A stretch of 64,000 bases of DNA from an uncultured Pseudomonadota bacterium (GTDB lineage Bacteria > Pseudomonadota > Alphaproteobacteria > Rs-D84): contig OOHL01000003.1 of NCBI GenBank assembly GCA_900321105.1, forward strand, positions 17,516 to 81,515, read 5' to 3'. The notes under the pieces are model-generated. The model worked only from the letters and a program-made list of their open reading frames with translations. It was not told the origin of the DNA and did no database searches. Positions 1 to 40,101 of this stretch are shown here, piece after piece. Position 1 is the stretch's first letter; every line of letters starts with the position of its first letter. Both the position numbers and the translations under genes were made by a program.

Positions 1-1249
1 GCGTGTCACCGCATGTACCGATGAATTCAAAGCCTGTATCCAAGACGATGAAAGATGCGGCGAAGATTATTCAAAATGTATTGGATTGGATGAAAATGAT
101 ATTGCTGAACTTTGTCCTGATGATAAATTAACAGCATGTTATCATGAATATGACGGTAAAAAAGAAACAGTACGTGAAACATTGGCAAATGTTGCGAACG
201 GCATAATGTTACAGATTCATTCTGGTTTGGCAGATGCGTGCGAGAACGCAGTCAAAGAAGCGATGATAAAAACATGTGGTAATGCCGAAAATTGTAATGA
301 TTTAATAGTCGGTGACAAGGTTGGATCAAGAAGTTTGGAATTAAAGTTCTGTGAAGTTAATGATGCAAATAATATGTATGCGAATTGCAAAACAGATATC
401 AAAGAAATTATGGATAAAGAATTGGGTAAAACAATTCGTAATGCCGATTTATCAAAAACTAAAAATGACAGACATATTTATACAGGTCTGATATTGGGCG
501 ACATATTATGGAATCAAATAACCCCGTTGCCAGATTATTCCGGTGTTATTTCTGGGGATGAATATATAGAAAAAGTGAAAGACATCGTTTATATGGATGA
601 TAAAACCAAAGACAAAGTTAAAACAGAAGTCGGAGCAATAACAAATATGATAAAAAGCACTATTGCCACCGTAGAGACGGATCCGCGTGTACAATTTTGT
701 ATGACTGGTCGTCAGGTCGCAGGTCTTACTGGCGATGGTGGTTTACAACAATATATTGGCAAAGAAAATAATGCAACCTTTCCAAATATTACACAAAGTG
801 CACGTGTCGCAATTGTTAATGGTGCATTACTTGCCGCACAAAAATATTACAATAACAAATATGATGAATTGATTCAGAAAGCAATTGATGCAAATGCACA
901 ACTTCGCGCGCGTTATGCAGAAATTGATGATGCTAATTTCCATCTTGATGTTCAAGACAGCGCCCGTCAAAAATGTATGGCATTGGGTGAACGCGCTGCA
1001 TTTTCTGACAAGGTCAGTGGTCGTGGCGCCAAAAATGAAATTGTCCGTTCAGGTGGCAAAGATGATAAGTTTGTCGGTTATTCCACAGAATCTACATATA
1101 ATTTCAAACGTCAAGTCACTACAACTTTCAGTATGGATAAAATGATTTGCACAAAATGTGTGCGAACCCAAGAATGCTTTATAACAAAAAGAGATTACTG
1201 TAAAGAATGGGATGAAGAAGAAGAAACCTGTGAAGAGATAAAATATTAA
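1..1249 (+). CDS. C-terminal part of a cysteine-rich secreted protein of the paralogous family; the 5' end lies upstream of the window
   Basis: The frame is open from position 2 with no stop before the listed 86 start. The translation ...ACTDEFKACIQDDERCGEDYSKCIGLDENDIAELCPDDKLTAC aligns with CTKEIKECMQSGDRCGSDYSQCIGLDTNIIMRMCPYDKLPGC of ORF 1252-4002 and the equivalent in ORF 19857-22355. It shares the QFCMTGRQVAG motif and a Cys-rich C-terminus ending CEEIKY. Confidence 0.75.
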   Translation, partial: RVTACTDEFKACIQDDERCGEDYSKCIGLDENDIAELCPDDKLTACYHEYDGKKETVRETLANVANGIMLQIHSGLADACENAVKEAMIKTCGNAENCNDLIVGDKVGSRSLELKFCEVNDANNMYANCKTDIKEIMDKELGKTIRNADLSKTKNDRHIYTGLILGDILWNQITPLPDYSGVISGDEYIEKVKDIVYMDDKTKDKVKTEVGAITNMIKSTIATVETDPRVQFCMTGRQVAGLTGDGGLQQYIGKENNATFPNITQSARVAIVNGALLAAQKYYNNKYDELIQKAIDANAQLRARYAEIDDANFHLDVQDSARQKCMALGERAAFSDKVSGRGAKNEIVRSGGKDDKFVGYSTESTYNFKRQVTTTFSMDKMICTKCVRTQECFITKRDYCKEWDEEEETCEEIKY

Positions 1250-1251
1250 AA

Positions 1252-4002
1252 ATGAAATTGTTTTTGAAAATCTTTATCGCGATTGTTTTGATGGGTAATG
1301 TTTATCCAGCGTTTTCTGCGCGTTCTACTGTTGCGAAACAAAGTGTTGTAAGTATGGGAACAAAAATAGAAGAATCGAAAGCAACACAATCTTCACCTTG
1401 TCAGGAAAAATATGATGCATGTATGGATGCCGGTTGTATTATTGATAATGACAGTGGTGGTCGTTGTCAATGCAGTAATCAAATCAAAGATTTAAATGCA
1501 CAATTAAAACAAATTGAAAAAGATTTTAAAAAGACTGTCGATTTATCTAATGATACACTGGACAGAATCAGTGCCGGTGATATGGTAAATGAAGCATTTG
1601 ATAAATCTGGATTCAATGATGATGACGAAGACGATGAAGATTTGGAAACAGCAAGTGATTCAATCGGTGATAAATTACGCAGTGAAATGCATCAAATATG
1701 TGCTGAAAAAATCCCAGAATGTAAATCGCAATTAACACTGATTAAAAATATGTATGCGCAAAAGGTTAAATCTGATTGTGCTGCATTTGAAAACGCATTA
1801 AAACAACGTGGACGTGAAGGTCGTGCAACGTTGGCAGCGGCGGAAAAAAATGTGCGTGATGCGGCGCTTGATAAATATCAAAATGATAATAAATATGATT
1901 TGGGTCAATGCACATTAGAATTCACAAAATGTATGCAAACAACCGCAGAATGTGGAAGTGATTTCACGGGTTGTGTTTCGACTGTCGGTAAAGAAAGTAT
2001 TTATGGCGGTGTCAAAAATACTGTCGCGATACAGGGGGAAAACTCTTCTATTATAATTGCAAAATCAACAATGGAGATGTTGGAATCTAAAAAAATAATC
2101 TGCGATTCTGTATTGAATAATTGTAAAAAAGTTAAAGATGATGTTTGGGATGCGTTCCTTAAAAACGCTGCACCACAAATTAAATTGGCAGAATCAAAAT
2201 CAGAATCAAATATTCGCACATCTTGTTTGAATAATATTTCGGATTGTTTTGTGAACGCGTGTAAAGATACAATTGACGGAAATGATTCTTATGATGCGTG
2301 TTTAAGTCGTCCGGAAATGGTAAAATCTTTCTGTCGTGTTGAATTGGAACCGTGTTTGGCCGCAACCGGTGGGACATACGATAATCCAGAAAGTTCGACT
2401 TTGTGGCCAAGTATATTGGCAAAATTATCTGCGATGCGTGTTGATTCTTGTACCAAAGAAATCAAAGAATGTATGCAAAGCGGTGACAGATGTGGTTCTG
2501 ATTATTCACAATGTATCGGATTGGATACAAATATAATTATGCGTATGTGTCCGTATGATAAATTACCCGGATGTCAAAAGGTTTATGGCAAAGAACGGGT
2601 GCAGGGTGATGATATTTATGACGAAGTCGCCCAGATTATCGAAGGCACAATATTGAATATTGATAATGAAATGTTGGCAACGTGTGAAACGGCTGTGGAT
2701 AACGCGATGTCAAAGGTTTGCGGTGATACAGAAAGTTGTGCGGCATATGCATTGGGAACAAAAATCGGTGCACAATCTTTGGAATATCGTGTATGTCAAT
2801 ATTCGACAGATTCCCCAGATTCAACCAAGGGATTCAAATGGTTTGATTGTCGTCCGGACATTGAAAGTATTTCAGATTATGAATTGGGACGTAATAAAAA
2901 TGCCACATCGGAAGAATTGGGTTATGTTGCGCCATTTGCCGGTGTTATAACTGGTGTTATTAAATGGGAAAGTGTTGAAATTACAGATGACGGTATGATT
3001 GATGTCGATGCATATGTCGCCGCATTGGATAATGAAAAAGACATTGATATTACCGACCGTGACAAAGAATTAGTTCGTGACGAATTAAATCAATTACAAA
3101 ACGATATCAATCGTGTTATTAAACAGGTAGAAAGCGATAACTTTGTTCAATATTGTATAACCGGACGTCAGGTTCAGGGTGTCACAGATATGTTCAAAGA
3201 TAACAAAGTCCGTTTTCCAAAATTATCAAACACAATACGTAAGAACATAGCCAATGCCGCCCTGCAACAGGCCAAAGATAATTATTATCGTAAATACGAT
3301 AAATTGGCGGAACAAATGCAAACCGATATGGCCGCTATAAATGTCAGATTACATGAAAATCTTAAACTTAATGGTGAAGATGCTAAAAGAATTGCTGCTA
3401 GGGCAGCATGTGTTAATATTGCTTCTATAGCTGTTTTTTCTAAAGCCCCCGTTGGTCAATCATTATGGGCAAAGATTGTTATTGGAATAATAGTTGTTGC
3501 GGCAATAGTTGTGGCAACAGTATTTACGGCCGGTGCAGCAACAGGTGCTATTGCTGGTATTGCTGCTTTTTCTACAACTACTACTCTTACAACTACTGTT
3601 ACAACTTCGTTAGGCGTAATGACGTTAACCGCAACAGTTCCAACGCTTACAGGGGTAGGCAGTGTTATCGTTGCTGCCACAGCTGGGGCTGCTGCTGTGG
3701 CTGGGGTTGCGGGGGCGGCCGCCACTGCTGCACAAGCAGCGGAAGCAGAAAGACAAAATGCTGCATTTATTGATTCGCAACAAAAAAAGCAAGCAGAAAC
3801 ACATGGTGAAAATTTCTTTAGAGAATGGAATTATATGGAAAAAATTACAACCGATTTCGATGATAAAACAATGGTTTGTAAAAAATGTATTTCAAAACGT
3901 TATTGTGAACAAACAAAATGGTCCTTGTTTACCGACAGAACATGCAAAAAATGGGAAACCGACGATTTTGTCGATGAACGTTGCACCGATGTTCAATTTT
4001 AA
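1252..4002 (+). CDS. Cysteine-rich secreted/surface protein, paralogous family member (916 aa)
   Basis: N-terminal signal peptide (MKLFLKIFIAIVLMGNVYPAFSA). Carries the conserved C..KYDACMD..C...GG.C.CS motif, an acidic patch (NDDDEDDEDLE) and the CxSDFxGC, VWDAFL, CLSRPEMVKSFC, DRCGSDYSQCIGLD and QYCITGRQVQG motifs. Has a 90-aa Gly/Ala/Thr/Val hydrophobic low-complexity segment and a C-terminal CKKC..C..C..C terminus. It starts 2 bp after the preceding paralog's stop. Confidence 0.8.
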   Translation: MKLFLKIFIAIVLMGNVYPAFSARSTVAKQSVVSMGTKIEESKATQSSPCQEKYDACMDAGCIIDNDSGGRCQCSNQIKDLNAQLKQIEKDFKKTVDLSNDTLDRISAGDMVNEAFDKSGFNDDDEDDEDLETASDSIGDKLRSEMHQICAEKIPECKSQLTLIKNMYAQKVKSDCAAFENALKQRGREGRATLAAAEKNVRDAALDKYQNDNKYDLGQCTLEFTKCMQTTAECGSDFTGCVSTVGKESIYGGVKNTVAIQGENSSIIIAKSTMEMLESKKIICDSVLNNCKKVKDDVWDAFLKNAAPQIKLAESKSESNIRTSCLNNISDCFVNACKDTIDGNDSYDACLSRPEMVKSFCRVELEPCLAATGGTYDNPESSTLWPSILAKLSAMRVDSCTKEIKECMQSGDRCGSDYSQCIGLDTNIIMRMCPYDKLPGCQKVYGKERVQGDDIYDEVAQIIEGTILNIDNEMLATCETAVDNAMSKVCGDTESCAAYALGTKIGAQSLEYRVCQYSTDSPDSTKGFKWFDCRPDIESISDYELGRNKNATSEELGYVAPFAGVITGVIKWESVEITDDGMIDVDAYVAALDNEKDIDITDRDKELVRDELNQLQNDINRVIKQVESDNFVQYCITGRQVQGVTDMFKDNKVRFPKLSNTIRKNIANAALQQAKDNYYRKYDKLAEQMQTDMAAINVRLHENLKLNGEDAKRIAARAACVNIASIAVFSKAPVGQSLWAKIVIGIIVVAAIVVATVFTAGAATGAIAGIAAFSTTTTLTTTVTTSLGVMTLTATVPTLTGVGSVIVAATAGAAAVAGVAGAAATAAQAAEAERQNAAFIDSQQKKQAETHGENFFREWNYMEKITTDFDDKTMVCKKCISKRYCEQTKWSLFTDRTCKKWETDDFVDERCTDVQF

Positions 4003-4971
4003 TTAATCTAATTCATCCAATGATTTGATTACACGAACACCCATGTTTTCAAATTTGTTAATGGTGTCTTCGATGTCCATGATGTTTTGTGATTGCAGAT
4101 AAAGGACCGGTATCAAACCATTTTGTTTGCCCAGGTCAATTAAATCGTTTATTGGTGAATCAATTTGTTTGCCAGCTGCAAACCATGTGTTATTATCCAT
4201 TACCCAGAAATCACCATCGTTATGTTCGTATATAACATATTTTTCAGTTGCCACAAATTCTTTATATGTTTCGAATTCTATGTTTTTTGATGCAAAATAT
4301 TTTGTGGTGTTGTTTTCCAATGGTTTTTCTTCGGGTTCGTCATCAAAATTTATGTCTGTGAATGTTGGAATTTTTATGTTTTCTGAATCGCTTTCATCCA
4401 AAGATTCCGATATATCAAAATCTGTCGGTATATTAAATGTGTTTTCTATATCGGTGTTTTCAGATTTATCATTTTTTTCTGTGGTTGGTTTTGTGTTTTG
4501 TTTGTTATATACAGAAACAACCCCCATTAACGACATATTATTTTTTGCGCGCATATATGGAACACGCAATTCGGGCGGCATATCAGACGGATATTCAGGT
4601 TGAAGTGGTTCTTCTGATTTTTCTTCAACGATTGGTTCGGTTGGTTTTTCCACTTCTTTTTTCTTTGGTAAATATTTTGATATGAATTCAACGATTTTAT
4701 CAACAAAAGGTATCGCAATTACCAATTCTTTTTTGCGATAAATTGTTGCGGTTGTCGCAATGTATATTGGAATTGCAGTATATATCAACAACCCAAACAC
4801 AAAGCCGCCAAAACCATGCAATGTAGAATGAAAAAATTTCCACCAATAATGTGCGTTGAACATATCGAATTTAAATACAAATCGCAATATTAACCACAAT
4901 ACAAAAAAATACCAGAATGTCCATTTGGCAATAATTATGTTTGATTTAATAAATTCAATAATCTTTTTCAT
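4003..4971 (-). CDS. Hypothetical membrane protein with 2-3 N-terminal TM helices and an acidic, low-complexity C-terminal half
   Basis: 322-aa ORF with strongly hydrophobic N-terminal segments (WTFWYFFVLWLILRFVF, GFGGFVFGLLIYTAIPIYIATTA) and a D/E/S/N-rich region. No recognisable catalytic motif. Confidence 0.5.
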   Translation of the reverse strand: MKKIIEFIKSNIIIAKWTFWYFFVLWLILRFVFKFDMFNAHYWWKFFHSTLHGFGGFVFGLLIYTAIPIYIATTATIYRKKELVIAIPFVDKIVEFISKYLPKKKEVEKPTEPIVEEKSEEPLQPEYPSDMPPELRVPYMRAKNNMSLMGVVSVYNKQNTKPTTEKNDKSENTDIENTFNIPTDFDISESLDESDSENIKIPTFTDINFDDEPEEKPLENNTTKYFASKNIEFETYKEFVATEKYVIYEHNDGDFWVMDNNTWFAAGKQIDSPINDLIDLGKQNGLIPVLYLQSQNIMDIEDTINKFENMGVRVIKSLDELD

Positions 4972-5069
4972 ATTACTATTATAGACAATATAAACAATTT
5001 GTCAATATTTTTAAAACAAATATTATTTTGCATATTTTTTAAAAAAAACTTTTTTTAGGGGTCTCTGTA

Positions 5070-5078
5070 TGATATAAT
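5070..5078 (+). promoter_or_regulatory. Candidate extended -10 promoter element (TGaTATAAT) upstream of ORF 5107
   Basis: TGATATAAT lies 29 bp upstream of the ATG, followed by a GGGGGA Shine-Dalgarno at 5095-5100. The -35 is weak. Confidence 0.35.
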
Positions 5079-5106
5079 ATGTTCATAAGAATTTGGGGGA
5101 AATACT

Positions 5107-7254
5107 ATGAAAATGTTGAATTTATTTGGGAAATCAATGGTCAGTGTTGCTGTTTTGGCAACGTGTTGTGGCGCAAATGCTGCACAAAACGGTCGTGTCA
5201 GTATGATGCCGGCGGTTGATTCTGCATCAAGTGCACGTATGCCAACAATGCCGGTTGTATCTTTGAACACTATCGGAAATCCGGCGGTTCAAACAATAAG
5301 CCAACCGGTCGAGGCTACATATAATCACGAAGTTATGCCAACACCTCCGACACCACCAACCCCGGACCCAAAACCAATATCTGAATGTCCAGATGGTGGC
5401 GTGAAAAATTCAACATATACTATTTCCATGTGTATGAATGACGTCTTGCAATGCGTTAATACCGGCGCACTTCAAGGTGGTTTGAACGATTTGTTCAACG
5501 AAGATGTGCGTAATTCAATTATGGGTGGCATGAAATTATGTCAGGCTTCGGTTGATAAATGTATTTCCGACGTTCGTGTAAACTGCCGTAATGTTTATGC
5601 TGAAAGCAACGATGTGTGGCTTGATTTCAATTCCAGAATTGTTCAACCAGAATATTATAACTTTGTTTTACGTAAAACAGGTTTGACACCAAATCAGGCT
5701 GAAAATACATGCTTGTTATTGGATCGCAATACATATGGTTCATCGTTCTCTGCGGTGTCTGATACAAATGTTGTAAATACTGAATATAACAACAAGGTCG
5801 GTGCATATAACGAAGCTAACGGTGGAATTCTTTCCAAAGATAATCCACAAGGTGTCGCGGTTAATACTGTTGGATACGATGGAAATCGTGGCCATTATGC
5901 ACGTTGGGATGCGGCAAAGGCTGAATGTTTGATTCGTGTTGCGGCATATAACAAAGATAAATTGATTACAAACAGTTGGTTGTTCGGTGCCGTTGGTAAT
6001 GATAACCCGGCAGAAGTTTGGGAAAAAGCAGGTTCAACATTTACATGCAGCAAAGAATTGTTTGATTTCGATTCATTGTTGAATGATACAAAGACCGCTG
6101 CTGTTATCGCGGTTCCAGGTGGTGCTGTGTTGGGTACTGCAATTGGTGCAGCCGCCGGGGCAGGTGCTTATAAAAAGAAAGCTGCTGCTGCCGAAGAATT
6201 ATTAGATTCTTCTTATGAAGATCCTTGTACGGCTGGTGATGATCAGGGCAAACGGTATCGTCAAATATTGGGTTCAGCCATCAGGGGCAAAGAGTATTCG
6301 TTACAGGGATATCTTTGTGAAAATGTGAAGGCTAACGAAGAAAAACAAAATGTTGAATGTAAAAGTTATGATACAATCGATTCATATAATATAAGCGTAA
6401 AGCAATGTAAAGACATACATAATTTGTTTGCCAAGGCTGAATTATACAGAGCGGCGCATAAGGCATGTCAGGACAGGGTATCACCAGAAATGATTTCGCG
6501 TGTGGTTGGCAATGTTTGTGTCGAAGGTGAATATTCTTGTAAAGATGCCAGTGGTAACATCATTACAGCTGAAAATATGAAAAACAACCAGAGCTATGAT
6601 TTATATCAACAATACATAGAATATAAAAACAATTGTTCATTTAAACCGTTGTTAATGTTATTTTCGTTACAAGACCAAGATCCTTTGTGCAAAACAAACA
6701 AAGACTGTGTCTCTTATGAATACAGCAAGAAAGAATTGGTAGAATTAGACAATTTCCTGGCTGGTATAGAAAGCGTTGTTGATAAAAACGCCTTGAAAGT
6801 TGCAAAACAAATCAAAGAAAATGAAAAGTTAAGCAAAGGCAAAGAAATCGGCAAGGGTGCAGCGATTGGTTTGGCAACTGGTGCCGCCGCCGGTGGTGTT
6901 GCAACAGCAATCACAGCATTTGTAGAACGCAGCAACATTACATGTAAAGTTGGTGATGGTCTGAATTCTGTTGCATTGGGCAAGGCGCACACTATCGATT
7001 CCTTGAAAGATTTCTATGTGAAATGGAATCTGCATTTGCCAGATACAGTATCGCCAACATCTGCAGTTTCTACAAAGGCAGATTGGGAACAAGCATGCAG
7101 CCAATTCAATAACAAATTGACAGATTGTCCAAAGGTTCAAATTAACCTGAAAGACACAAATGGTAAATATACATTGGTACCATCTGCATGTAAAGTTTCT
7201 GGAAATGTTTGTATCGTAAATGATTCAGTTATGACATCAAACGGTATACAATAA
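5107..7254 (+). CDS. Secreted cysteine-rich protein of a distinct type from the main family, with a Pro/Thr linker and two Gly/Ala zipper segments
   Basis: Signal peptide (MKMLNLFGKSMVSVAVLATCCGANA). Has a PTPPTPPTPDPKP linker and about 30 Cys. Two hydrophobic G/A-rich segments are present (TAAVIAVPGGAVLGTAIGAAAGAGA and GAAIGLATGAAAGGVATAITAFV). A hairpin terminator follows. Confidence 0.7.
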   Translation: MKMLNLFGKSMVSVAVLATCCGANAAQNGRVSMMPAVDSASSARMPTMPVVSLNTIGNPAVQTISQPVEATYNHEVMPTPPTPPTPDPKPISECPDGGVKNSTYTISMCMNDVLQCVNTGALQGGLNDLFNEDVRNSIMGGMKLCQASVDKCISDVRVNCRNVYAESNDVWLDFNSRIVQPEYYNFVLRKTGLTPNQAENTCLLLDRNTYGSSFSAVSDTNVVNTEYNNKVGAYNEANGGILSKDNPQGVAVNTVGYDGNRGHYARWDAAKAECLIRVAAYNKDKLITNSWLFGAVGNDNPAEVWEKAGSTFTCSKELFDFDSLLNDTKTAAVIAVPGGAVLGTAIGAAAGAGAYKKKAAAAEELLDSSYEDPCTAGDDQGKRYRQILGSAIRGKEYSLQGYLCENVKANEEKQNVECKSYDTIDSYNISVKQCKDIHNLFAKAELYRAAHKACQDRVSPEMISRVVGNVCVEGEYSCKDASGNIITAENMKNNQSYDLYQQYIEYKNNCSFKPLLMLFSLQDQDPLCKTNKDCVSYEYSKKELVELDNFLAGIESVVDKNALKVAKQIKENEKLSKGKEIGKGAAIGLATGAAAGGVATAITAFVERSNITCKVGDGLNSVALGKAHTIDSLKDFYVKWNLHLPDTVSPTSAVSTKADWEQACSQFNNKLTDCPKVQINLKDTNGKYTLVPSACKVSGNVCIVNDSVMTSNGIQ

Positions 7255-7277
7255 GAAACAATATAACAAATTAAAAA

Positions 7278-7305
7278 GAACACCGACATTGTCGGTGTTT
7301 TTTTG
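7278..7305 (+). terminator. Rho-independent terminator after ORF 5107-7254
   Basis: The hairpin aacaccgacattgtcggtgtt is followed by a T-run. Confidence 0.7.
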
Positions 7306-7335
7306 TTTAACAAACAAGAAGAATTGAAACTGTTT

Positions 7336-8436
7336 TTATGCGGCCTTCTTCATACCTTGTTTTATATCGCGAACATATTTACGCAATTCATCAATTGGAA
7401 CCAATGTGCCATCTTTCTTTTGTGCTGACCAATAATCCCAACCATTAAAACTGACACTGTGTTGTATGCGTGCCGCCATAACATGTATGGATGCCTTGCC
7501 ATATAATGTATGCATCAATTGGCCATCGTGTGTAATCATAACGCGGTCGCCACGTGGTCCAACCAACGTTTGGCCGACATATAATAAGCCACTATCAATC
7601 AATTCGCGGAAATTAACCTTGATTGCATCGCGTTTTGGCGCGGATACTTCAATATCTGACAAATCGATTGGTGTAATTTTCTCAACACGTTCACGCGCCG
7701 CATTGACATATGTTTCTTCGCGATCAATACCGATAAATTGACGGCCTAATTCTTTTGCAGCCGCCGCAGTTGTTCCGGAACCCACAAAAGGATCCAAGAT
7801 AATATCACCTGGTTTTGTGGATGATAAAATCACGCGGCGCAATAAATCCATCGGCTTTTGTGTATTGTGCAAACTTTTTCCGTTTGCATCCTTTACACGT
7901 TCTTCGCCCAAGCATATATTTATATCCCAATCAGAACGCATCTGTTTTCCGCCGTTCAATTTTTTCATCGTTTCATAATTGAAAGTATATTTACCTGTTT
8001 TTGTCGGTGTTGCCCATATCAATGTTTCATGTGCGTTTGTAAATCGTGTCCCACGAAAATTAGGCATAGGATTTGTCTTTACCCAAACAATATCATTTAA
8101 AATCCAAAATCCCATATCTTGCAAAATAGAACCCACGCGGAATATGTTGTGATATGAACCAACAACCCACATTGCACCGGTTGGTTTTAAAATTCTTTTA
8201 CATTCACGCATCCAATCGCGTGTAAATTCATCATATTTTTCGTTAGATTCAAATGTATCCCAACTGTCACGAACTGCACGTGCAGCCGTTTGATCTTCGG
8301 GACGATAAAGCGTTTTTTCCCCCAGTTGTAAATTATACGGTGAATCTGCAAAAATTGCATCAACGGATGCATCAGGAATCTTGCGCATTATATCTATACA
8401 ATCACCGCACAAAATTTTGTTAAGGTATTTTTGCAT
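7336..8436 (-). CDS. ccrM: CcrM-type beta-class N6-adenine DNA methyltransferase, an orphan with no adjacent restriction enzyme
   Basis: N-terminal FADSPYN (DPPY-type motif IV) precedes LDPFVGSGTT (motif I). At 366 aa it includes the C-terminal extension typical of CcrM. Confidence 0.75.
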   Translation of the reverse strand: MQKYLNKILCGDCIDIMRKIPDASVDAIFADSPYNLQLGEKTLYRPEDQTAARAVRDSWDTFESNEKYDEFTRDWMRECKRILKPTGAMWVVGSYHNIFRVGSILQDMGFWILNDIVWVKTNPMPNFRGTRFTNAHETLIWATPTKTGKYTFNYETMKKLNGGKQMRSDWDINICLGEERVKDANGKSLHNTQKPMDLLRRVILSSTKPGDIILDPFVGSGTTAAAAKELGRQFIGIDREETYVNAARERVEKITPIDLSDIEVSAPKRDAIKVNFRELIDSGLLYVGQTLVGPRGDRVMITHDGQLMHTLYGKASIHVMAARIQHSVSFNGWDYWSAQKKDGTLVPIDELRKYVRDIKQGMKKAA

Positions 8437-8610
8437 TTTCTCTCGTTCCCCTGGGCTTTGTGTCCCGTTTGTTTATAGATATTTTATCATATTTTAGGGT
8501 TATAAAAAAGCCTCCATCGAATCGGTTTTGAAAAAAAACACTTGATTTTTATAAAAAAGCAATTTTTTTATGCTTTACTTATCAATGAATTTTTTCTAAT
8601 CTTAAAGATT

Positions 8611-9111
8611 ATGAGATGTCCATATTGTAATTCTACTGACAGTCGTGTGGCGGATTCGCGCCCAGATATCGAAGACGCGATTATTCGCCGTCGTCGTGTT
8701 TGCAATCAATGCGGTGCTAAATTTACTACGGTTGAACGTATTCAAATGCGCGATTTGATTGTTCGTAAAAACAGTGGAAAAACAGAACCTTTTGATCGTG
8801 ATAAATTATATCGCAGCATTAAATTGGCTTGCCGTAATCGTGATGTTAAGGACGAACAGATTGAACGTTTGGTTGCATCAATTCAACGTCGTCTTGAAAC
8901 CGAAAGCGAAGACGATATGGTGACCAGTGCGATGGTTGGACAAATGGTATCTGATTCTTTATTAAACTTGGATCCAATCGCATTTATAAGATTTGTGTCG
9001 GTATATCGTAAATTTTCCAAGGTTTCAGATTTTAAAAAAATCATAAGTCAAATTCCAGAGGCAGACGAAGATGCAATCGTTTGCGAATTACCAAAGACTT
9101 CTTTGTTCTGA
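8611..9111 (+). CDS. nrdR: Transcriptional repressor NrdR
   Basis: MRCPYCNSTDSRVADSRP zinc-ribbon N-terminus plus an ATP-cone. The listed ORF start at 8542 is an upstream extension; the true start is taken at MRCPY. Confidence 0.9.
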   Translation: MRCPYCNSTDSRVADSRPDIEDAIIRRRRVCNQCGAKFTTVERIQMRDLIVRKNSGKTEPFDRDKLYRSIKLACRNRDVKDEQIERLVASIQRRLETESEDDMVTSAMVGQMVSDSLLNLDPIAFIRFVSVYRKFSKVSDFKKIISQIPEADEDAIVCELPKTSLF

Positions 9112-9114
9112 GAT

Positions 9115-10839
9115 ATGAAAAAGATATTAACCTTTTTGTTGGCTATATTTTTTCTGGTGCCTGCATCGGCGATTGAATCTGTGGATGTATTAACGGATGA
9201 TGATGCCGCACGTTATGCACAAATATTTTTATTGCAAGACAAAGAAAAAATAGAAACAGCAAAAAAAGTCGAAGCAAAATTAACAGACAAATCTTTGATG
9301 AACGAAGTTTTATATCAAAGATATACTTCGAAAACTTATCATACACGTGGCGCAGAATTGAAATCGTGGATGGATAAATATTATGATATGCCTGGCGCAG
9401 AAAGATTATATAAAATCGCAAATATAAAACAGGCAACTGTTCGTAAACCTTTGGCACCACACATCATTACCGGCAAAGATTATATTGAAACAGCGCAATC
9501 TGAAAATTGGACTGTGAAACAATATAGTAATTCAACAACTAAAACGATTGATAAATTTAAACGCGCAATTCGTTCGGGGTCTTCAAAAAACGCACGTAAT
9601 ATATTAGAAGATAAATCTTTCAAGGCAAAAATTTCTGATGCGGATTATGGACGATTGGCGGGTCGTTTAGCGTTTTTATATTATACGAACGGCGAATATG
9701 AATTGGCGAAAAAATGGGGTTTTGTTTCATCTGATGCAAATTCAGAATATGGACTTTGGACGATGGGATTACTTTATTTCAAAGAACAAAAATATAATGA
9801 ATCACAGAAATATTTTGGACGCATTTTGGATTTAACACAAATCAACAATGCCCGCAAGACCGAGGCTGCATTTTGGGCTGGTCGTGCCGCTGATATAAAT
9901 GGCAATCGTAGTGACGCAAAAAAATATTGGAAGATTGCTGCGGCATATCCAATGTCTTTTTATGGTGCATTGGCATCGACTATGTTAGGTGATACGCCAG
10001 AATATGAATTTTTTGATCAAGAATGTTCTGATGAAGATATTGTCACTTTGCGTGAAAATAAATATGGTAAAAAGGCATTGGCTTTATTACAAGTCGGACG
10101 CAAGGACAGGGCAGAACAATATTTAAAATATCTGGTGACGGCAAAATCTTCGGATAAATTATTGCACGCTGTTAATGCCGTATCATCACTTTATGGATTG
10201 CCCCAGGTTTCTATTTTGGTATCTGGTGTTATGCGTGATCGTGGTGTATCAGAAATTAATGATGATATTATTTATTCGGCACAATATCCATTGCCTAATT
10301 GGGAACCTTTGGGTGGATGGTCTATTGACAGGGCGCTTTTGTTAGCAATCACAAAACAAGAAAGTGGTTTTAAAACAAATGCAAAATCAAATGCAGGTGC
10401 AAATGGCGTTATGCAAATTATGCCAAGTACGGCCAAAAAGGTTGCGCGTAAAAATGATATAAAAATGTCTGAAATCGATATAAATAATCCTGAACATAAT
10501 ATGTTCCTGGGGCAACAATATATTGTCGATTTATTACAACATCAACTGATTCAAAATAATATTATAAAAATGCTGGTCGCGTATAATGCAGGTATGGGGA
10601 ATCTGGTTAAATTTGAAAAAAGTTTTTCTACATCTGACCCGTTGTTATATATAGAAAGTTTTCCTGCATATGAAACACGCAATTATATAAAGCGTGTTAT
10701 GTCTAATTTGTGGCTTTATCGTGCGCGCCTTAATCAGCCGTTGACGGCATTAAAAGAACTGTCCGGTGGTTCATGGCCATATTACAACAGCGAAGACGAA
10801 TATGTGCAAAACAGAGACACAAAAAATTTGTCGTTATAA
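9115..10839 (+). CDS. slt: Soluble lytic murein transglycosylase (Slt family)
   Basis: Signal peptide and superhelical N-terminal domain. C-terminal SLT catalytic motif ITKQESGFKTNAKSNAGANGVMQIMPSTA. Confidence 0.85.
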   Translation: MKKILTFLLAIFFLVPASAIESVDVLTDDDAARYAQIFLLQDKEKIETAKKVEAKLTDKSLMNEVLYQRYTSKTYHTRGAELKSWMDKYYDMPGAERLYKIANIKQATVRKPLAPHIITGKDYIETAQSENWTVKQYSNSTTKTIDKFKRAIRSGSSKNARNILEDKSFKAKISDADYGRLAGRLAFLYYTNGEYELAKKWGFVSSDANSEYGLWTMGLLYFKEQKYNESQKYFGRILDLTQINNARKTEAAFWAGRAADINGNRSDAKKYWKIAAAYPMSFYGALASTMLGDTPEYEFFDQECSDEDIVTLRENKYGKKALALLQVGRKDRAEQYLKYLVTAKSSDKLLHAVNAVSSLYGLPQVSILVSGVMRDRGVSEINDDIIYSAQYPLPNWEPLGGWSIDRALLLAITKQESGFKTNAKSNAGANGVMQIMPSTAKKVARKNDIKMSEIDINNPEHNMFLGQQYIVDLLQHQLIQNNIIKMLVAYNAGMGNLVKFEKSFSTSDPLLYIESFPAYETRNYIKRVMSNLWLYRARLNQPLTALKELSGGSWPYYNSEDEYVQNRDTKNLSL

Positions 10840-10842
10840 ATA

Positions 10843-11478
10843 ATGAAAAGTATTCCTGATTTTTCAATTGAAAAAAATATCGGCAAAAAAATTATTGTCG
10901 GTGCAGACGAGGCTGGTCGTGGTCCATTATGTGGACCTGTTGTTGCAGGGGCTGTTGTTTTTAAAAAATATGATTTTGATGATATGCCTTTTATCAGTGA
11001 TTCAAAACAGATGTCTGAAAAACAACGTGATATCGCATACGATTGGATAACAAATAATCCAGACATAATCTGGGGTATCGGTCAATGCAGTGCAGCCGAA
11101 ATTGATGATATGAATATTTTACAAGCATCCCTTGCTGCGATGAAGCGCGCAATATGTGCGCTGGGCATTGTGCCGGATTATTGTTTAATTGATGGAAATA
11201 AAATGCCAAATGATTTAATTGGTGAACCAGTTGTCAAAGGCGATGCAAAATCTTTATCAATTTCGGCTGCATCCGTTATTGCAAAGGTCACGCGTGACAG
11301 AATCATGAAAGATTTAGCAAAAAAATATCCACAATATGATTGGGATAAAAATGCTGGCTATCCAACACAACAACATTTGCAAGCAATCGATAAATATGGT
11401 ATAAATGAACATTATAGAAAGACTTATCGTCCGGTAAAAGAAAGGATTGAAAAAAATGCCGATTCAAAATGTTCGTGA
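10843..11478 (+). CDS. rnhB: Ribonuclease HII
   Basis: GADEAGRGPLCGPVV motif. Length 211 aa. Confidence 0.9.
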   Translation: MKSIPDFSIEKNIGKKIIVGADEAGRGPLCGPVVAGAVVFKKYDFDDMPFISDSKQMSEKQRDIAYDWITNNPDIIWGIGQCSAAEIDDMNILQASLAAMKRAICALGIVPDYCLIDGNKMPNDLIGEPVVKGDAKSLSISAASVIAKVTRDRIMKDLAKKYPQYDWDKNAGYPTQQHLQAIDKYGINEHYRKTYRPVKERIEKNADSKCS

Positions 11479-12622
11479 CATAAATGTTAAATCAAAATAT
11501 GTTTTATTGCGTACAGATTTTAATGTTAAAGTTATCGATGGAAAAATAACAGATACTTTTCGCATAGACGCATCAATACCGACGATAAAGTATTTAACAA
11601 ATAGTGGTGCGCGTGTCGTGATTTGTTCGCATATGGGACGACCAAAAGGTAAATCAGAATCTGATTTGTCTTTGCGCCCAATTGCAGAATATATGAATAT
11701 CCCATTTGTGGAAGATTGTTTGAATAAAGATTTTTTATCAGATATGCACGATGGTGATGTTGTGCTTTTGGAAAACGTGCGTTTCTATATCGGTGAAGAA
11801 GAAAACGATGATTCGTTTGCAAAAAAATTATCAGAAGGTTTTGATGTATATGTAAACGATGCGTTTGCTGTATCACATCGCAGCGCCGCCAGTATTGTCG
11901 GTGTAACAAAATATTTGCAGTCTTTTGCAGGCGATTTATTGATAAAAGAAATTGAAAATATTTCGAAAGTTATGGAACGTCCAACACACCCATTGGTTGC
12001 TTTTGTTGGTGGCGGCAAAGTTTCCACAAAGATAGGCGTATTGAAAAAATTGGTTTCGATTGCTGATAAAATTGTTATTGGTGGCGCAATGGGAACAACT
12101 TTTAATTTTGCGCTGGGATTGCCTGTTGGCGATTCGTTATATGAAGAATCTATGTCAGATGTTGCGCTGGATATAATCAATTTTGCAAAACAAAATAATT
12201 GTGAAGTATTTTTGCCTTTGGATAAAGGTGTCGGAAAAGTCTTTGATAAAAATACTGAAAGAATAAATCGTGATGCAAATGATATTCATGATGATGATGT
12301 AATAATGGATGACGGTGAAAAAACAATTGCACGAAACAAAGAGTTATTACAAGATGTAAAAACTGTAATTTGGAACGGGACATTTGGTTTGGCGGAATGG
12401 GGTGAACCTTGGGGACGTGCATCGTTTGAATTGGCACGCGATTTGGCACATTTTACAAAAATGGGAAAAATAGAAACTGTCGTTGGTGGCGGCGATACAG
12501 TCGCAACATTAAATGCATGCGGCGTATTTAATGATATGACATACGTTTCAACCGGTGGCGGAGCATTTTTGGAATTTATTGAAGGTAAAGAATTACCAGG
12601 TATTGTTGCGTTGGAAAAATGA
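11447..12622 (+). CDS. pgk: Phosphoglycerate kinase
   Basis: Full-length similarity to PGK (CSHMGRPKG, VGGGKVS, GGGAFLE motifs). Overlaps the rnhB end. Confidence 0.9.
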   Translation: MKKMPIQNVRDINVKSKYVLLRTDFNVKVIDGKITDTFRIDASIPTIKYLTNSGARVVICSHMGRPKGKSESDLSLRPIAEYMNIPFVEDCLNKDFLSDMHDGDVVLLENVRFYIGEEENDDSFAKKLSEGFDVYVNDAFAVSHRSAASIVGVTKYLQSFAGDLLIKEIENISKVMERPTHPLVAFVGGGKVSTKIGVLKKLVSIADKIVIGGAMGTTFNFALGLPVGDSLYEESMSDVALDIINFAKQNNCEVFLPLDKGVGKVFDKNTERINRDANDIHDDDVIMDDGEKTIARNKELLQDVKTVIWNGTFGLAEWGEPWGRASFELARDLAHFTKMGKIETVVGGGDTVATLNACGVFNDMTYVSTGGGAFLEFIEGKELPGIVALEK

Positions 12623-14871: not shown

Positions 14872-14906
14872 AAAAAAAACGATAAAATATTTATCGTTTT
14901 TTTTTA
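14872..14906. terminator. Bidirectional hairpin terminator between clpX (+) and ORF 14904-17222 (-)
   Basis: The hairpin aacgataaaatatttatcgtt is flanked by an A-run and a T-run. Confidence 0.65.
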
Positions 14907-17222
14907 TGGTTTACAATATCCCCATAATGCACTGGAACCTGTTTTAATGTAAAAGCTGTTCAATAAATAATCACCAGTAGAATCATGAATACCATCACTG
15001 TTTTTATCTGTCCATGGAATATCAACCCATGTCCCAGATTGGTCAGAACATTCTTGTGATAAAGACAAAACCAGTTGTGTGCGAACCTTTTGCATAACTT
15101 TATCAATATCAGATAACAAAGATTCTGATACTGTATAACTTGTCTTTGACGGTCGACGACAATTCTGAAGCGCATATCTTACAAGTTGTTGATACAAAGA
15201 ACCAATGTAAGACGTCCCACATGTCATATATATATCAGAAGATGATTGCACGGGGGCTAGTTTGCCGCCATAACAAGTATAAGTTTTTGGACATTGTTTG
15301 CATTCCGTTGCACCAGTTGTTGCAAAATAAACTCCTGTGTTGTCTTCATCTGTTTCATCAAACTTATACAAATAATATCCAGGTTTACATTCCTTATATA
15401 TTTTTGTATATCCTATGGAACAATAATCTTGATATGCTGCATGTGAATACGTAGATGTTTGTGCAGTGGTTGTAATCAAAATATCGTTTTGGGAAAAAGG
15501 GTTATATGATGTTTCATTGCATATTTCAACACGTGCATATCGCGATTCCCCTGGAGCATATTTGCGACAACCATAAGGATAAGAATGTGCTGAATCACCA
15601 GTCTGGATAGCACATCTGCTTTCTACAAATGTTGTTAATAAATCATAACACGATTGTTCGATTGTCGCATCTGTGATGCCTGTCATTGCAGCAACTAATG
15701 TTGTAAGACCTTCTTCGCCACCACCATATAAATTACTGCAAGTATTTAATTTATCAGCACACATTTCTTCGGATAATTCCAATGTTTGTCCCAAGTTAAT
15801 TTTTGTATCTGTATCTGAAAAATTTTTTAATTGGTCTGATTGTTTCAGATAACATTCGTTAACAACTTTCAAACATTCATCTTTGACTGTTTTTACTCGT
15901 GCTTGTTGTCCTTGGTATATTTCGACAATTGCTTGTCGTAAGAATTCGTCCCATACATCTTCGGCATCATCACGACATAAATCCAGACTTTTTGATGCAA
16001 AATTACGTTTTTTGTTAAGCATACTTATAAATGATGTGTTTTGGCTGTTTTTTAAAACATCACCTGATAACGATAATTGGTTTTCAATCTGATAAAATTC
16101 AGGCGAATATATTGGTTGTCCAGTTGATATATTCAAATATTTACCAGAAAAATCTAAACAGTGAATATATCCATTTCCACAGGCTGAATCTGCCGTTATA
16201 TCTTTACGAACATTTGCAATACAATCATTTATGCTGGACGAATTGTGTGCATTATAATTTTCGAGACGCGCATCTTGCATTTTATGACGTGTTGATCGTA
16301 TTGATGCATTTGCATTGGTGGTTTTTGTTTGCAGATTATTTTCAAGTAAAGAGCAATCATTTTCAACGTACATGCCGTATGCAGATGCAACCATTTTCAA
16401 ATCAGATGATGCACAAGTTTCTGTGACAAGTTCTGAACATTGGGCATGTACCGCATTGAATAAAGCTTCGCCGGTAAGATTTGCAATGTCTGCACCGCCA
16501 ATCAAATTTGTTGTTGACCAAATAGATTTTATATCACCAGCAATGTCTACATTTCCCTTGGTCGATAGCGATTGAGATTTTGTATTACTAAGCACACCAG
16601 AAATATTTTTCAATGTATTTGCGCTTTCAGACGTATCCTTTTTGATCGCAGATTCACCATCTGTAGCGGATAACATCGCTTTTACTTCTTTGGATGTTTT
16701 TGATATCATGTCGATATTTAAATCTTGAAAGTCTTGTAAACTTTCTGCGGTTTGTGATAAAAGCCTTTCTTTGTTTTGTATATCTTTTAATTTTGAAGAA
16801 CAAACACATCGACGGTACGTTTCGTTTTGCGTAGCGCAAAATTGATCCATACATGTAAAATATGCATCGCGACAAGAATTATAATTTGATCCGAAAGTTC
16901 TTGTTTTTACAGTAGCGGCAGCGCGCGCCAATCTTGAAGCTTGTGTTGCAACCGCAGAACGAACAGCTTGGTGATTTTGTGTCGCACTTCGCCCGGTGAC
17001 AATCTTTGTATTTGGTGTACGTGCGGTTGTCTTTCTGGTGGTGACATCTGCAGATGCGTTACGCGATGTTATAGAACGGCTTGTATTGGTATCTGTTTTT
17101 TGTCGTGTTGATGACGATAGGCGTGATGTTGTTGGTGTTGCAGTATTCTGGGTACGCAAAGCAGCATTGACCCCGTCAACGCATAAAAACAGACCAAGCA
17201 AAACAACAAAAACCTTTCTCAT
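14904..17222 (-). CDS. Cysteine-rich secreted protein, divergent member of the paralogous family (772 aa)
   Basis: Signal peptide MRKVFVVLLGLFLCVDGVNA. Has a Thr/Ser/Arg-rich linker. SCRDAYFTCMDQFC......RRCVCSS matches the family N-terminal motif and CRDDAEDVWDEFLRQA matches the VWDxFL motif. About 35 Cys. The C-terminus differs from the other members. Confidence 0.75.
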   Translation of the reverse strand: MRKVFVVLLGLFLCVDGVNAALRTQNTATPTTSRLSSSTRQKTDTNTSRSITSRNASADVTTRKTTARTPNTKIVTGRSATQNHQAVRSAVATQASRLARAAATVKTRTFGSNYNSCRDAYFTCMDQFCATQNETYRRCVCSSKLKDIQNKERLLSQTAESLQDFQDLNIDMISKTSKEVKAMLSATDGESAIKKDTSESANTLKNISGVLSNTKSQSLSTKGNVDIAGDIKSIWSTTNLIGGADIANLTGEALFNAVHAQCSELVTETCASSDLKMVASAYGMYVENDCSLLENNLQTKTTNANASIRSTRHKMQDARLENYNAHNSSSINDCIANVRKDITADSACGNGYIHCLDFSGKYLNISTGQPIYSPEFYQIENQLSLSGDVLKNSQNTSFISMLNKKRNFASKSLDLCRDDAEDVWDEFLRQAIVEIYQGQQARVKTVKDECLKVVNECYLKQSDQLKNFSDTDTKINLGQTLELSEEMCADKLNTCSNLYGGGEEGLTTLVAAMTGITDATIEQSCYDLLTTFVESRCAIQTGDSAHSYPYGCRKYAPGESRYARVEICNETSYNPFSQNDILITTTAQTSTYSHAAYQDYCSIGYTKIYKECKPGYYLYKFDETDEDNTGVYFATTGATECKQCPKTYTCYGGKLAPVQSSSDIYMTCGTSYIGSLYQQLVRYALQNCRRPSKTSYTVSESLLSDIDKVMQKVRTQLVLSLSQECSDQSGTWVDIPWTDKNSDGIHDSTGDYLLNSFYIKTGSSALWGYCKP

Positions 17223-17680: not shown

Positions 17681-17705
17681 AACATAAAAATGTAGGAATG
17701 TGCAC

Positions 17706-19838
17706 ATGAAAATATTGAGATTTTTACCAATTTTGTTGGTTTTGCCATCTGTCGTGTATGGGGCTTCACGTGGGGATTCAGAGATGCGTGTTGGTATAGT
17801 GCGTGGATCTCAGGCTGCTTCGCGCATATCTGTCGGGGCCGCGGAAGTAAAAGCTGTACGTGAGTCTGCAGAGAAAATACTGCAATCAAATGAAAAAGAT
17901 GGTTCTAAAAAATTACCATCTATTTCAGGATATGCGACCGAAAGTCCTGCGAGTGATTGTCGTGATGCGTATCGTGAATGTATGGATAATTTTTGTTTGT
18001 TGGACGAAAGCCAGGGTGAACGTTGTGCGTGTTCTGATAATATAGAACGTGCAAAAAGCAAAATTCAGGCTGTTCTTGATATCCAGGCAGAAGCAGACAA
18101 ATTGTATACCGAGGGTGTTGAACGTGAACAACTGGGTGCCAAGGCGCGTTTAGTTTTTGCTGATAACACCAGTACCAAGGTTTCAACTGCGAATTTCATG
18201 GCATGGTTGGGCGCCGGAGAAGAAGATGAAGAAGAAGAAGTTGGCGAAGATGTGACGATGGGTGATGATTTGTACCAAATGGCTGTTAAGTATTGTCAGG
18301 CTGAATTAGATGCTTGTGGCAGTAAGGCCGAAATGGAATCCATGCTTTATACGCGCATGATAACCCAAGATTGTAAAAATTATGATGCATATCTGGCAGA
18401 CCAGAAAGCAAATGCGGAATCCAATAAACGTATCGCAGAATCTGCGGTTCGCAAGGCACGTCTTGAAATGTTAGACACGACAAATAAATATAACCGTGGT
18501 GAATGTTTGTTGGCATATCGTTCATGTATCGCAGACAAGGGTGGTTGTGGTTCTAATTTTGAAAACTGTTTAGATGAAAAATTATTACAACGTCGTTCAA
18601 ATGCCTGTGAAAACGTGTTGGATCAATGTATGGCGGTTCGTGATTATGTTGTTAAAGATTGGGCGGCAGAATCTAAAAGTGTTTTGGCAGAAGCAGCAAA
18701 ATATGCGGATAAATATGAACGTGCAACATGTTTGGCAAAGGTGCAACTTTGTTTGGAAGAAGGGTGTTCAACATCAACAAATGCGGAATGTTTAACAGAT
18801 GTAAATGTCGCTGCTGGTGTATGTCCAATTATTACAGAATGTGACGCAAAGATACCAGGCTTCCAGGCTGTTGTAAACGATAAGTTGGGATATTTGCAAA
18901 CAAAGTTCTGTGAAAATGATGTTGATAAATGTCTGCAAGATAAGTGTGGTGTTGATTTTACGAAACCAGAATGTGTTGGTAAAAAACCGTATGAAATCGC
19001 GGCGCTTTGTCCACAGAGTATGTTCCCTTCTTGTAAGACTGCAACACAATTTGATGTGATTGTTCAGGCTGCAATCTTGCAAATGGATTATCAAATGATG
19101 CAGGGCTGTGTGAATTATTTTGGTGAACAACTGGGCAAGGTTTGTGGTACAGATATGGCGTGTTTACCAATTGATACAACTGTTGAATCTTTAATCAATT
19201 TGCCTGATACCGAAGAAGGTTTGGCAGATTTACGTAAAACGGTTGTTGCAAATTCTGATGCATCGGTCGAAGAATTCTTTAAACAATTTGAACAAGATAA
19301 AACTGTGGCTGCTTGTTCGGATTCTCAAAGTGTTGACGCGTCAAAGAAAGTAAAGGGTAAAAACACATTGGGGGTAAGTGTATTTAATACTGCAAAATTA
19401 TTGGCGAAAATGGCAGCAGAAAATCGTAATTTACGCGAACTTGATTCTAAAATTGCAGAATTGGCACGTAAAAAAGAATTAAAAGAAGCAGAACAAATTT
19501 GTTTGAAAACTTATAAACCTGAAAAACCAGATGATTCTAAAACGAATTACAGTTATATAAAAAGTGTTTCGTTTGAACCACAACTTCGTAATTGTCATGT
19601 TTGCAGATTGCAACAGGTGTGCGAAGAAGGTGGCGAATCAAAAGCATCTGCGGCATTGAAAGCTGCGGCTGGTGGTTTGTCGGCTGGCGCATCGACTGGA
19701 ACAATGATAAATGCCGGATGGGGAACCGCAATTGGTGGTATTATAGGTGCGGTTGGTGCCGGTGCATTAGGTGCGGCATCTGGTGGTAAAAAAGAATTCT
19801 GTCAAGAAATCGAATCTTGCGAAGATATAAATATGTAA
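17706..19838 (+). CDS. Cysteine-rich secreted/surface protein, paralogous family member (about 710 aa)
   Basis: Signal peptide [19 protein letters not shown]. Carries the [14 protein letters not shown]......GERCACSD motif and the acidic patch [12 protein letters not shown]. Also [20 protein letters not shown], a G/A-rich hydrophobic segment [40 protein letters not shown], and a terminus NCHVC...CEDINM. Confidence 0.8.
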
Positions 19839-25984: not shown

Positions 25985-26012
25985 AAAATGCCAAAATGGC
26001 ATTTTTTATTTT
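25984..26012. terminator. Bidirectional hairpin terminator between the kinase (+) and the Fic gene (-)
   Basis: aaaaatgccaaaatggcattttt forms a hairpin. Confidence 0.65.
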
Positions 26013-39958: not shown

Positions 39959-40101
39959 ATATTGTCCCAGCAATTATATATAATATATTTTATTTTTCAA
40001 ATAAATAATTTTCATAATATGATTTTATTCATATATAAAAAACTTGCTTAAAATTTTTTAATGTTCTAGGCTTTATGTATGAAAGAAAAAGGAGAGCTCT
40101 C

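Follow-up and report, generated by a model that had tools for sequence, protein, structure and literature searches.

We have analysed a pair of adjacent genes, here called A and B, that run through the first 4,002 nucleotides of a 64,000-nucleotide stretch of DNA (the window) from an uncultured alphaproteobacterium of the order Rs-D84, to which Enterousia belongs (contig OOHL01000003.1 of assembly GCA_900321105.1). Taken as a whole, the observations are best explained if A and B form an intact operon of paralogs that are translationally coupled and give rise to a disulfide-rich envelope complex with one soluble and one membrane-anchored component, an explanation that we regard as likely. The two genes are each other's closest paralogs within an uncharacterised protein family. 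The gene arrangement is an ordinary, textbook operon of tandem duplicates, and it is the protein family that is new.

Genes A and B are adjacent paralogs

Frame 2 of the plus strand contains no stop codon from nucleotide 2 until a TAA at 1247-1249, and these 416 codons constitute the 3' part of gene A. Gene B follows almost immediately, and the two genes and their junction are arranged as follows, with the start of gene A given on an overlapping contig, L081, that is described below.

1,298 nucleotides upstream of window nucleotide 1 (L081:4215): start of gene A
2 to 1249, plus strand: 3' portion of gene A (also referred to as g2), 1,248 nucleotides comprising 415 codons and TAA; the full gene encodes 848 amino acids
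1250 to 1251, plus strand: A/B spacer, the two nucleotides 'aa' that separate the A stop (TAA) from the B start (ATG), without a Shine-Dalgarno site
1252 to 4002, plus strand: gene B (g3), complete, with ATG at 1252, encoding 916 amino acids including 38 cysteines
3975 to 3995, plus strand: weak terminator-like hairpin within the last codons of B, a consensus match only

The initial annotation of this DNA had described a TAA at 1247-1249 and a paralog starting at 1252 after a 2-bp gap, and both the open reading frame coordinates and the alignment of the two proteins agree with this. The 415-residue A fragment aligns with B residues 396-737 at 34% identity (E 6e-54), and the final ~50 residues align too; full-length A is 39% identical to B over 793 columns (E 3e-164). 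The 416-codon open frame, in DNA of 36% GC, and the E-values of these alignments are all far beyond chance. The 2-nucleotide spacing is locally unexceptional, as the NrdR-SLT and SLT-RNase HII gaps are both 3 nucleotides. The genes for NrdR, the lytic transglycosylase SLT, RNase HII and PGK are consecutive at window positions 8542-12622, with 3-nucleotide gaps or overlaps, and very tight junctions between unrelated genes are normal in this compact genome.

Gene A is complete on an overlapping contig

Looking up the exact B protein identified an independent public ENA contig of 14,050 nucleotides (L081), which also encodes this exact protein. L081 matches window positions 1-8538 with 0 mismatches, window nucleotide 1 corresponding to L081 nucleotide 5513, and it adds 5.5 kb of upstream sequence. 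Gene A is intact on this contig (L081:4215-6761, 848 amino acids), with an ATG that lies 433 codons upstream of the part cut by the window and is preceded by the Shine-Dalgarno site GAGAGAGAG. The N-terminus of the product is a signal peptide (MRRLFTLSFCVCVLLQMNAFA, followed by ARSAV). Upstream of A is a third paralog, g1, which encodes 1,017 amino acids with a signal peptide and is itself preceded by rplQ. The N-terminus of A had been predicted to lie beyond the window edge, possibly together with further copies, and the contig contains both a complete A with its signal peptide and the additional copy g1, separated from A by a terminator. Upstream extension had also been proposed as a check on whether A is a pseudogene fragment, as would be indicated by an in-frame stop just outside the window that leaves no signal peptide; on L081 the frame is open and the signal peptide is present.

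Comparison with orthologs gives a ratio of non-synonymous to synonymous substitution rates (dN/dS) of 0.12-0.21 for A and 0.14-0.15 for B, with a value of 0.15 for PGK; these orthologs are 74-78% identical in protein and dS is near saturation. The data strongly support the view that A and B are both intact and under purifying selection, with neither decaying. In a neighbour-joining tree g1, g2 and g3 form three clean orthologous groups in which g2 and g3 are sisters, and the A/B duplication therefore predates the divergence of this clade.

Two interrupted family genes were seen in related metagenome-assembled genomes (MAGs). The g3 ortholog at L013:10001-12718 has a TAA in place of a glutamate codon, and the g2 ortholog at L014:3741-6343 has a premature TAG 268 nucleotides ahead of the normal end; these could be real pseudogenes or assembly errors.

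Transcription and translation signals

The 112-nucleotide intergenic region between g1 and A holds a terminator, an extended -10 motif and a Shine-Dalgarno site. The terminator is a strong intrinsic one, with ACCGCCCGGATGGGCGGT followed by T8 (L081:4113-4130), and the extended -10 promoter motif, TGATATAAT, is located 28 nucleotides upstream of the A ATG. Because this terminator stands between them, g1 is predicted to be a separate transcription unit from A-B.

The extended -10 motif TGNTATAAT is present 12 times in the window against 5.3 expected, a number reached in 0 of 100 shuffles, and nine of the 12 copies lie a short distance ahead of a gene start. The motif is a good promoter marker here and apparently the chief one that can be recognised in this genome, with example sites in the window as follows.

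5070, 12958, 22421, 32326, 34801, 45072, 50146 and 58557: extended -10 motif TGNTATAAT

None of the copies falls within window positions 1-4002. Between A and B there are no terminator-like sites, and promoter-like sites there are not in excess. A generic two-hexamer sigma-70 scan was uninformative, giving fewer matches than in shuffles, and the promoter and terminator evidence for A-B is at the level of consensus matches only. The arrangement is repeated in 16 related loci, in which a terminator, a promoter and GGAGAGAG are found before g2 and the g2-g3 gap is 1-3 nucleotides.

These signals support the interpretation of A-B as a bicistronic operon, read as one transcription unit. Operonic co-expression had been proposed in the initial annotation, and it gains support from the presence of the terminator, TGATATAAT and the Shine-Dalgarno site upstream of A only, from the lack of a terminator or extended -10 motif in 1-4002 apart from the weak hairpin listed above, and from the 1-3 nucleotide junction shared by the 16 loci.

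Most other genes in the window have a Shine-Dalgarno site (GGAG or GGGG, 6-10 nucleotides upstream), including another family member, paralog F. B has none in its spacer and its ATG is just 2 nucleotides past the A stop, so that it would be translated mainly by ribosomes ending on A; A and B are thus probably translationally coupled through termination and reinitiation. A hairpin masking the B start codon was also considered, and we reject it because only a weak A-U hairpin is predicted, which is not better than those in shuffles.

A family of cysteine-rich exported proteins

A profile search of 1.84 billion cluster representatives returned 971 family members at E 0.001 or better, and a scan of one genome per species returned 430 relatives. 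The best 80 of these 430 are nearly all labelled as Enterousia or as uncultured alphaproteobacterial or proteobacterial MAGs, from ruminants, horses, chickens and humans; the exceptions in label among these 80 are two Rickettsiales and one Muribaculaceae. The homologs of B are all unnamed or "hypothetical" and belong to gut Alphaproteobacteria that have not been cultured, Candidatus Enterousia merdequi among them. Judging from these searches, the family appears to be found only in Candidatus Enterousia and other gut Alphaproteobacteria of the order Rs-D84, with genomes smaller than 1 Mb.

No relationship to a described family was detected. Searches of Pfam and NCBIfam gave no match above curated cut-offs for A, B, g1, the window paralogs D, E and F, or 36 diverse members, and a sequence-profile search of the PDB gave coiled-coil and low-complexity noise only. 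Foldseek returned no match at E ≤0.001 for the model of B against PDB and viral structures or for the model of A against the PDB. Resemblances to a levivirus coat protein, a pilin, an S-adenosylmethionine (SAM)-methyltransferase cap and the Smh/MakE toxins were rejected on account of low probability and template modelling (TM) score. We found no publication on this family in the literature on Enterousia, Rs-D84 and cysteine-rich proteins of reduced-genome epibionts.

All 38 cysteines of mature A and B align (38/38), and over 30 do not vary across 57 aligned homologs. In B they include two tandem modules, each opening with Cx6Cx6Cx6C, whose copies are related to each other (hhalign probability 95.5%, E 1.5e-8). 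A signal peptide with a positive n-region, a hydrophobic core and an A-x-[AS] site is present in each of B, A (at full length), g1, D, E and F, as judged from hydropathy and by eye with no dedicated predictor. The following features were recognised in the two proteins, with pLDDT (predicted local distance difference test) values from AlphaFold (AF2) models.

2 to 346, plus strand: second cysteine-module copy in A, opening with CTDEFKACIQDDERCGEDYSKC (Cx6Cx6Cx6C) and aligning to B 396-510
1031 to 1246, plus strand: C-terminal beta domain of A, fragment residues 344-415, with 5 cysteines and ending ...CEEIKY (AF2 pLDDT ~88-95)
1252 to 1317, plus strand: B signal peptide, MKLFLKIFIAIVLMGNVYPAFS followed by AR, with a hydrophobic segment at residues 3-23; cleavage site placed by eye using the -3/-1 rule
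1897 to 2781, plus strand: two tandem cysteine modules in B, amino acids 216-395 and 396-510, each opening with Cx6Cx6Cx6C
3445 to 3723, plus strand: hydrophobic part of an insertion in B, with two membrane-like segments at amino acids 732-771 and 799-824 joined by a Thr-rich linker, from hydropathy and the A/B alignment gap
3802 to 3999, plus strand: C-terminal beta domain of B, amino acids 851-916, with 5 cysteines and ending ...CTDVQF (AF2 pLDDT 83-89)

The AF2 model of B (pLDDT 70) begins with long helices, which are followed by a small beta subdomain (about residues 510-570). A helix of 74 residues (656-729), forming a stalk, comes next, and then a helix of membrane-like character (738-760), a Thr/Ala/Gly-rich stretch predicted to be disordered and finally the C-terminal beta domain (851-915). 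The corresponding domain of A is homologous to B 859-916, and a conserved end motif, C-x-[DT]-x-Q-F, is family-wide. The family thus described appears to consist of Sec-exported, mostly helical proteins with a fixed 38-cysteine framework, and we infer that the cysteines of A and B form about 19 disulfides outside the cytoplasm.

Predicted anchored and soluble paralogs recur in tandem pairs

B differs from A by an insertion of ~120 residues that has no counterpart in A and is placed after the stalk helix and before the C-terminal beta domain. Since A has the C-terminal domain with no membrane segment, this domain should be on the ectodomain side of the membrane in B, and this in turn requires an even number of passes, i.e. 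a hairpin. A is therefore predicted to be soluble, and B to be held in the membrane by a two-pass hydrophobic hairpin.

A similar pattern is repeated elsewhere in the family. About 30 tandem pairs of family genes were seen in related genomes in all, and the upstream copy is without a hydrophobic segment and the downstream copy has one, with the single exception of L031, where it is present in both copies; both copies end in C-x-[DT]-x-Q-F. In the E-F pair of the window a glycine-zipper-like segment is present in E, as it is in 7/7 E orthologs, and in none of the F orthologs. These pairs together indicate that each tandem pair combines one anchor-bearing and one anchor-less paralog, and this recurring combination suggests an envelope complex with soluble and anchored components.

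Other family members and neighbouring genes

Five family genes are present in the window (A, B, D, E and F), occupying 17% of its bases and encoding proteins that stand out by their cysteine content of 3.9-5.1%. The three in addition to A and B are as follows.

14904 to 17222, minus strand: paralog D (distant), 772 amino acids, with a signal peptide and 30 cysteines
17700 to 19838, plus strand: paralog E, 712 amino acids, with a glycine-zipper-like segment (PGWGTAIGG[VIL][VI]G...) near the C-terminus
19857 to 22355, plus strand: paralog F, 832 amino acids, 33% identical to B, with no hydrophobic segment

F begins 18 nucleotides after E and has its own Shine-Dalgarno site. The D/E/F cluster is also present in related loci L020, L021, L026, L031, L068 and L070.

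The gene at 4003-4971 (minus strand) is convergent with B, and the two stop codons abut with 0 nucleotides between them. Its 322-residue product has N-terminal membrane helices, an acidic linker and no cysteines, and is conserved in 53 loci; in L001, from a close relative, the counterparts of this gene and of B are separated by 343 nucleotides. Conserved beside B in 51 loci is a 715-residue protein (window 5107-7254) with a signal peptide, 26 cysteines, Gly/Ala-rich hydrophobic stretches and no Pfam match. We considered whether this is a distant member of the A/B family, and BLAST and hhalign (probability 0.5%) rule this out. L001 also encodes, at 103-2028 and upstream of rpoA-rplQ, a 641-residue protein with 9.5% cysteine and Ephrin_rec_like repeats (E 3e-18), which resembles Giardia VSP or furin-like repeats and adds a second type of exported, cysteine-rich protein to those of this lineage.

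Further along the window, 34933-37808 encodes two hypothetical proteins of 302 and 655 amino acids with signal peptides, from genes that overlap by 1 nucleotide; neither has a Pfam match, and the larger has a weak coiled-coil-type match only. A Fic-domain protein is encoded at 26012-26806 (minus strand), and pyruvate:ferredoxin oxidoreductase (PFOR) at 28362-31859 is consistent with anaerobic metabolism. A 1,160-residue autotransporter is encoded at 40075-43557, which shows that the organism possesses an outer membrane and a route for beta-barrel assembly. The window also encodes the peptidoglycan enzymes SLT and M23, as well as CcrM, NrdR, RNase HII, PGK, ClpP/ClpX, GroEL, FtsH and enolase. 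MAGs of Enterousia/Rs-D84 are described as having genomes smaller than 1 Mb, no tricarboxylic acid cycle, no respiratory chain and few transporters, and a partner-dependent lifestyle has been proposed for them (PMC12306168); the remaining genes of the window fit this published picture.

Interpretation of the A-B pair

We propose that the terminator of g1, the extended -10 promoter, the Shine-Dalgarno site, A, the 2-nucleotide spacer and B, in this order on the DNA, would delimit a single transcription unit, and that ribosomes terminating on A would re-initiate on B such that the amounts of the two proteins are tied together. Both proteins would be exported and their cysteines would pair outside the cytoplasm. 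The hairpin that follows the long stalk helix and precedes the C-terminal beta domain would hold B in the membrane, with A remaining soluble, and the two would act jointly as an envelope or surface complex, structural or adhesive, in a bacterium thought to be partner-dependent.

Several observations weigh against parts of this scheme. The sequence GAAGAGAT is present in the last codons of A, about 13-20 nucleotides upstream of the B ATG, and might serve as a weak internal Shine-Dalgarno site for B; the RNA fold predicted at the junction is no more stable than that of shuffled sequence (z = -1.4). Gaps of 2-3 nucleotides also join unrelated housekeeping genes (NrdR-SLT-RNase HII), so that spacing alone is no proof of a functional link between A and B. 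In many relatives the locus contains just one family gene, whose product may or may not have an anchor, and a partner is therefore not universally required. We rank as the main rival an explanation in which co-transcription reflects genome compaction only. A and B would then be paralogs with independent or redundant functions, perhaps surface variants that diverged after duplication, and would neither form a complex nor need a fixed stoichiometry. The 3-nucleotide junctions between unrelated genes nearby, the single-gene loci in many related genomes, and the expansion of the family to five genes and 17% of the window are all consistent with this. It does not, however, readily account for the soluble-upstream and anchored-downstream order in ~30 pairs with one exception across deep divergence, for the recurrence of one-anchored pairing in E-F with the order reversed, or for g2-g3 being kept at 1-3 nucleotides in 16 loci while a terminator sets g1 apart. 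Compaction alone thus has a real chance of being the correct explanation, although one well below that of the coupled operon and its complex.

It is much less probable that g1, A and B are parts of a multi-component helical pore-forming toxin similar to the tripartite ClyA-type systems (Ahl/Smh/Nhe). Three tandem helical paralogs with a hydrophobic hairpin in one only are reminiscent of these, and SmhA, SmhB and MakE were among the Foldseek matches, but these matches are noise (E 2.5-7, probability 0.01-0.03) and none of the 36 members has a Pfam match to toxin families. The A/B-family proteins are, moreover, 2-3 times larger and have 38 conserved cysteines, the hairpin is near the C-terminus after the stalk helix rather than in a head domain, and g1 is apparently transcribed separately. 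As for the upstream gene being a pseudogene fragment in decay, or a silent cassette that donates variation to B, the truncation of A at the window edge and the premature stops in family genes of relatives (L013 g3 and L014 g2) could be taken to point that way, yet A is intact on the identical contig L081 with promoter, Shine-Dalgarno site and signal peptide. A also has a dN/dS of 0.12-0.21 and has kept all 38 cysteines, and at 39% A/B identity there are no long identical tracts for recombination. The pseudogene reading is contradicted by the L081 extension and is rejected, and we attach next to no probability to either version.

The preferred explanation, a coupled operon encoding a soluble-plus-anchored complex, leads to a broader and more speculative suggestion about the family, which we put forward as a possibility that is rather unlikely to be right in full. 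The family may build a helical structure of the envelope or cell surface that is stabilised by disulfides, is specific to Rs-D84/Enterousia and has not been described before. In it, anchored proteins such as B and E would tether or display soluble ones such as A and F, forming a coat or an attachment apparatus for contact with a partner cell or host mucus.

In a genome smaller than 1 Mb, about one sixth of a 64-kb window is devoted to large exported proteins whose 38-cysteine framework is rigid; the family has no annotated domain or detectable structural relative and is seemingly confined to a gut lineage that has not been cultured. Since a reduced genome retains what is needed, the family is a strong candidate for cell-surface or envelope machinery. 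Such machinery would underlie the proposed partner-dependent lifestyle (PMC12306168). The recurring pairing of anchored and soluble paralogs provides a concrete, testable model, and it raises the question of how an anaerobe with no respiratory chain would form about 19 disulfides per protein.

Comparison with known systems

In its arrangement the A-B pair resembles translationally coupled bicistronic operons, with genes on the same strand, stop and start codons 2 nucleotides apart, a spacer that lacks a Shine-Dalgarno site, one promoter and one Shine-Dalgarno site before the first gene (A), and a junction kept in 16 loci. It differs in that the cistrons are paralogous rather than encoding different subunits, and the coupling here is a prediction from sequence.

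The tandem helical paralogs with a hydrophobic hairpin in some only are also a feature of the ClyA-family toxins AhlABC, SmhABC and NheABC. The A/B family nonetheless has no sequence or significant fold similarity to these (Pfam; Foldseek probability 0.01-0.03, E >2), and differs in size, cysteine content and position of the hairpin.

The chlamydial proteins OmcA and OmcB are exported envelope proteins rich in cysteine, with adjacent genes in a host-dependent diderm that has a reduced genome, and are thought to act through disulfide bonding. A and B are likewise cysteine-rich proteins of exported type, from adjacent genes in a reduced genome. There is, however, no sequence relationship (the A/B family has no Pfam match), the Enterousia proteins are predicted to be composed mainly of long helices with a fixed intramolecular cysteine framework, and this organism has the peptidoglycan enzymes SLT and M23.

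Gut parasites such as Giardia have multigene families of cysteine-rich surface proteins with CXXC repeats, of the VSP/HCMP type. The A/B family is similar in being expanded, in its signal peptides and ~4% cysteine, in that some members have a membrane anchor at the C-terminus, and in belonging to a gut habitat rich in proteases; one relative (L001) also has a gene nearby for a VSP-like Ephrin_rec_like protein. It differs in being bacterial and in having Cx6C in helices rather than CXXC repeats, and its orthologs are conserved (dN/dS ~0.15) rather than hypervariable, with no evidence of switching.

The Hcp proteins of Helicobacter, with Sel1-like repeats, are secreted, helical, disulfide-stapled paralogs of a host-associated proteobacterium, and A and B also belong to an exported, helical and cysteine-rich family of paralogs. 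No Sel1- or TPR-type Pfam match was found in any of the 36 members, and the architecture of A/B is a different one, in which two cysteine modules are followed by a beta subdomain, a stalk helix and, at the C-terminus, a beta domain. With no homology to any of them, OmcA/OmcB, the Giardia VSP-type proteins and Helicobacter Hcp would be the nearest functional analogies to the proteins encoded by A and B.

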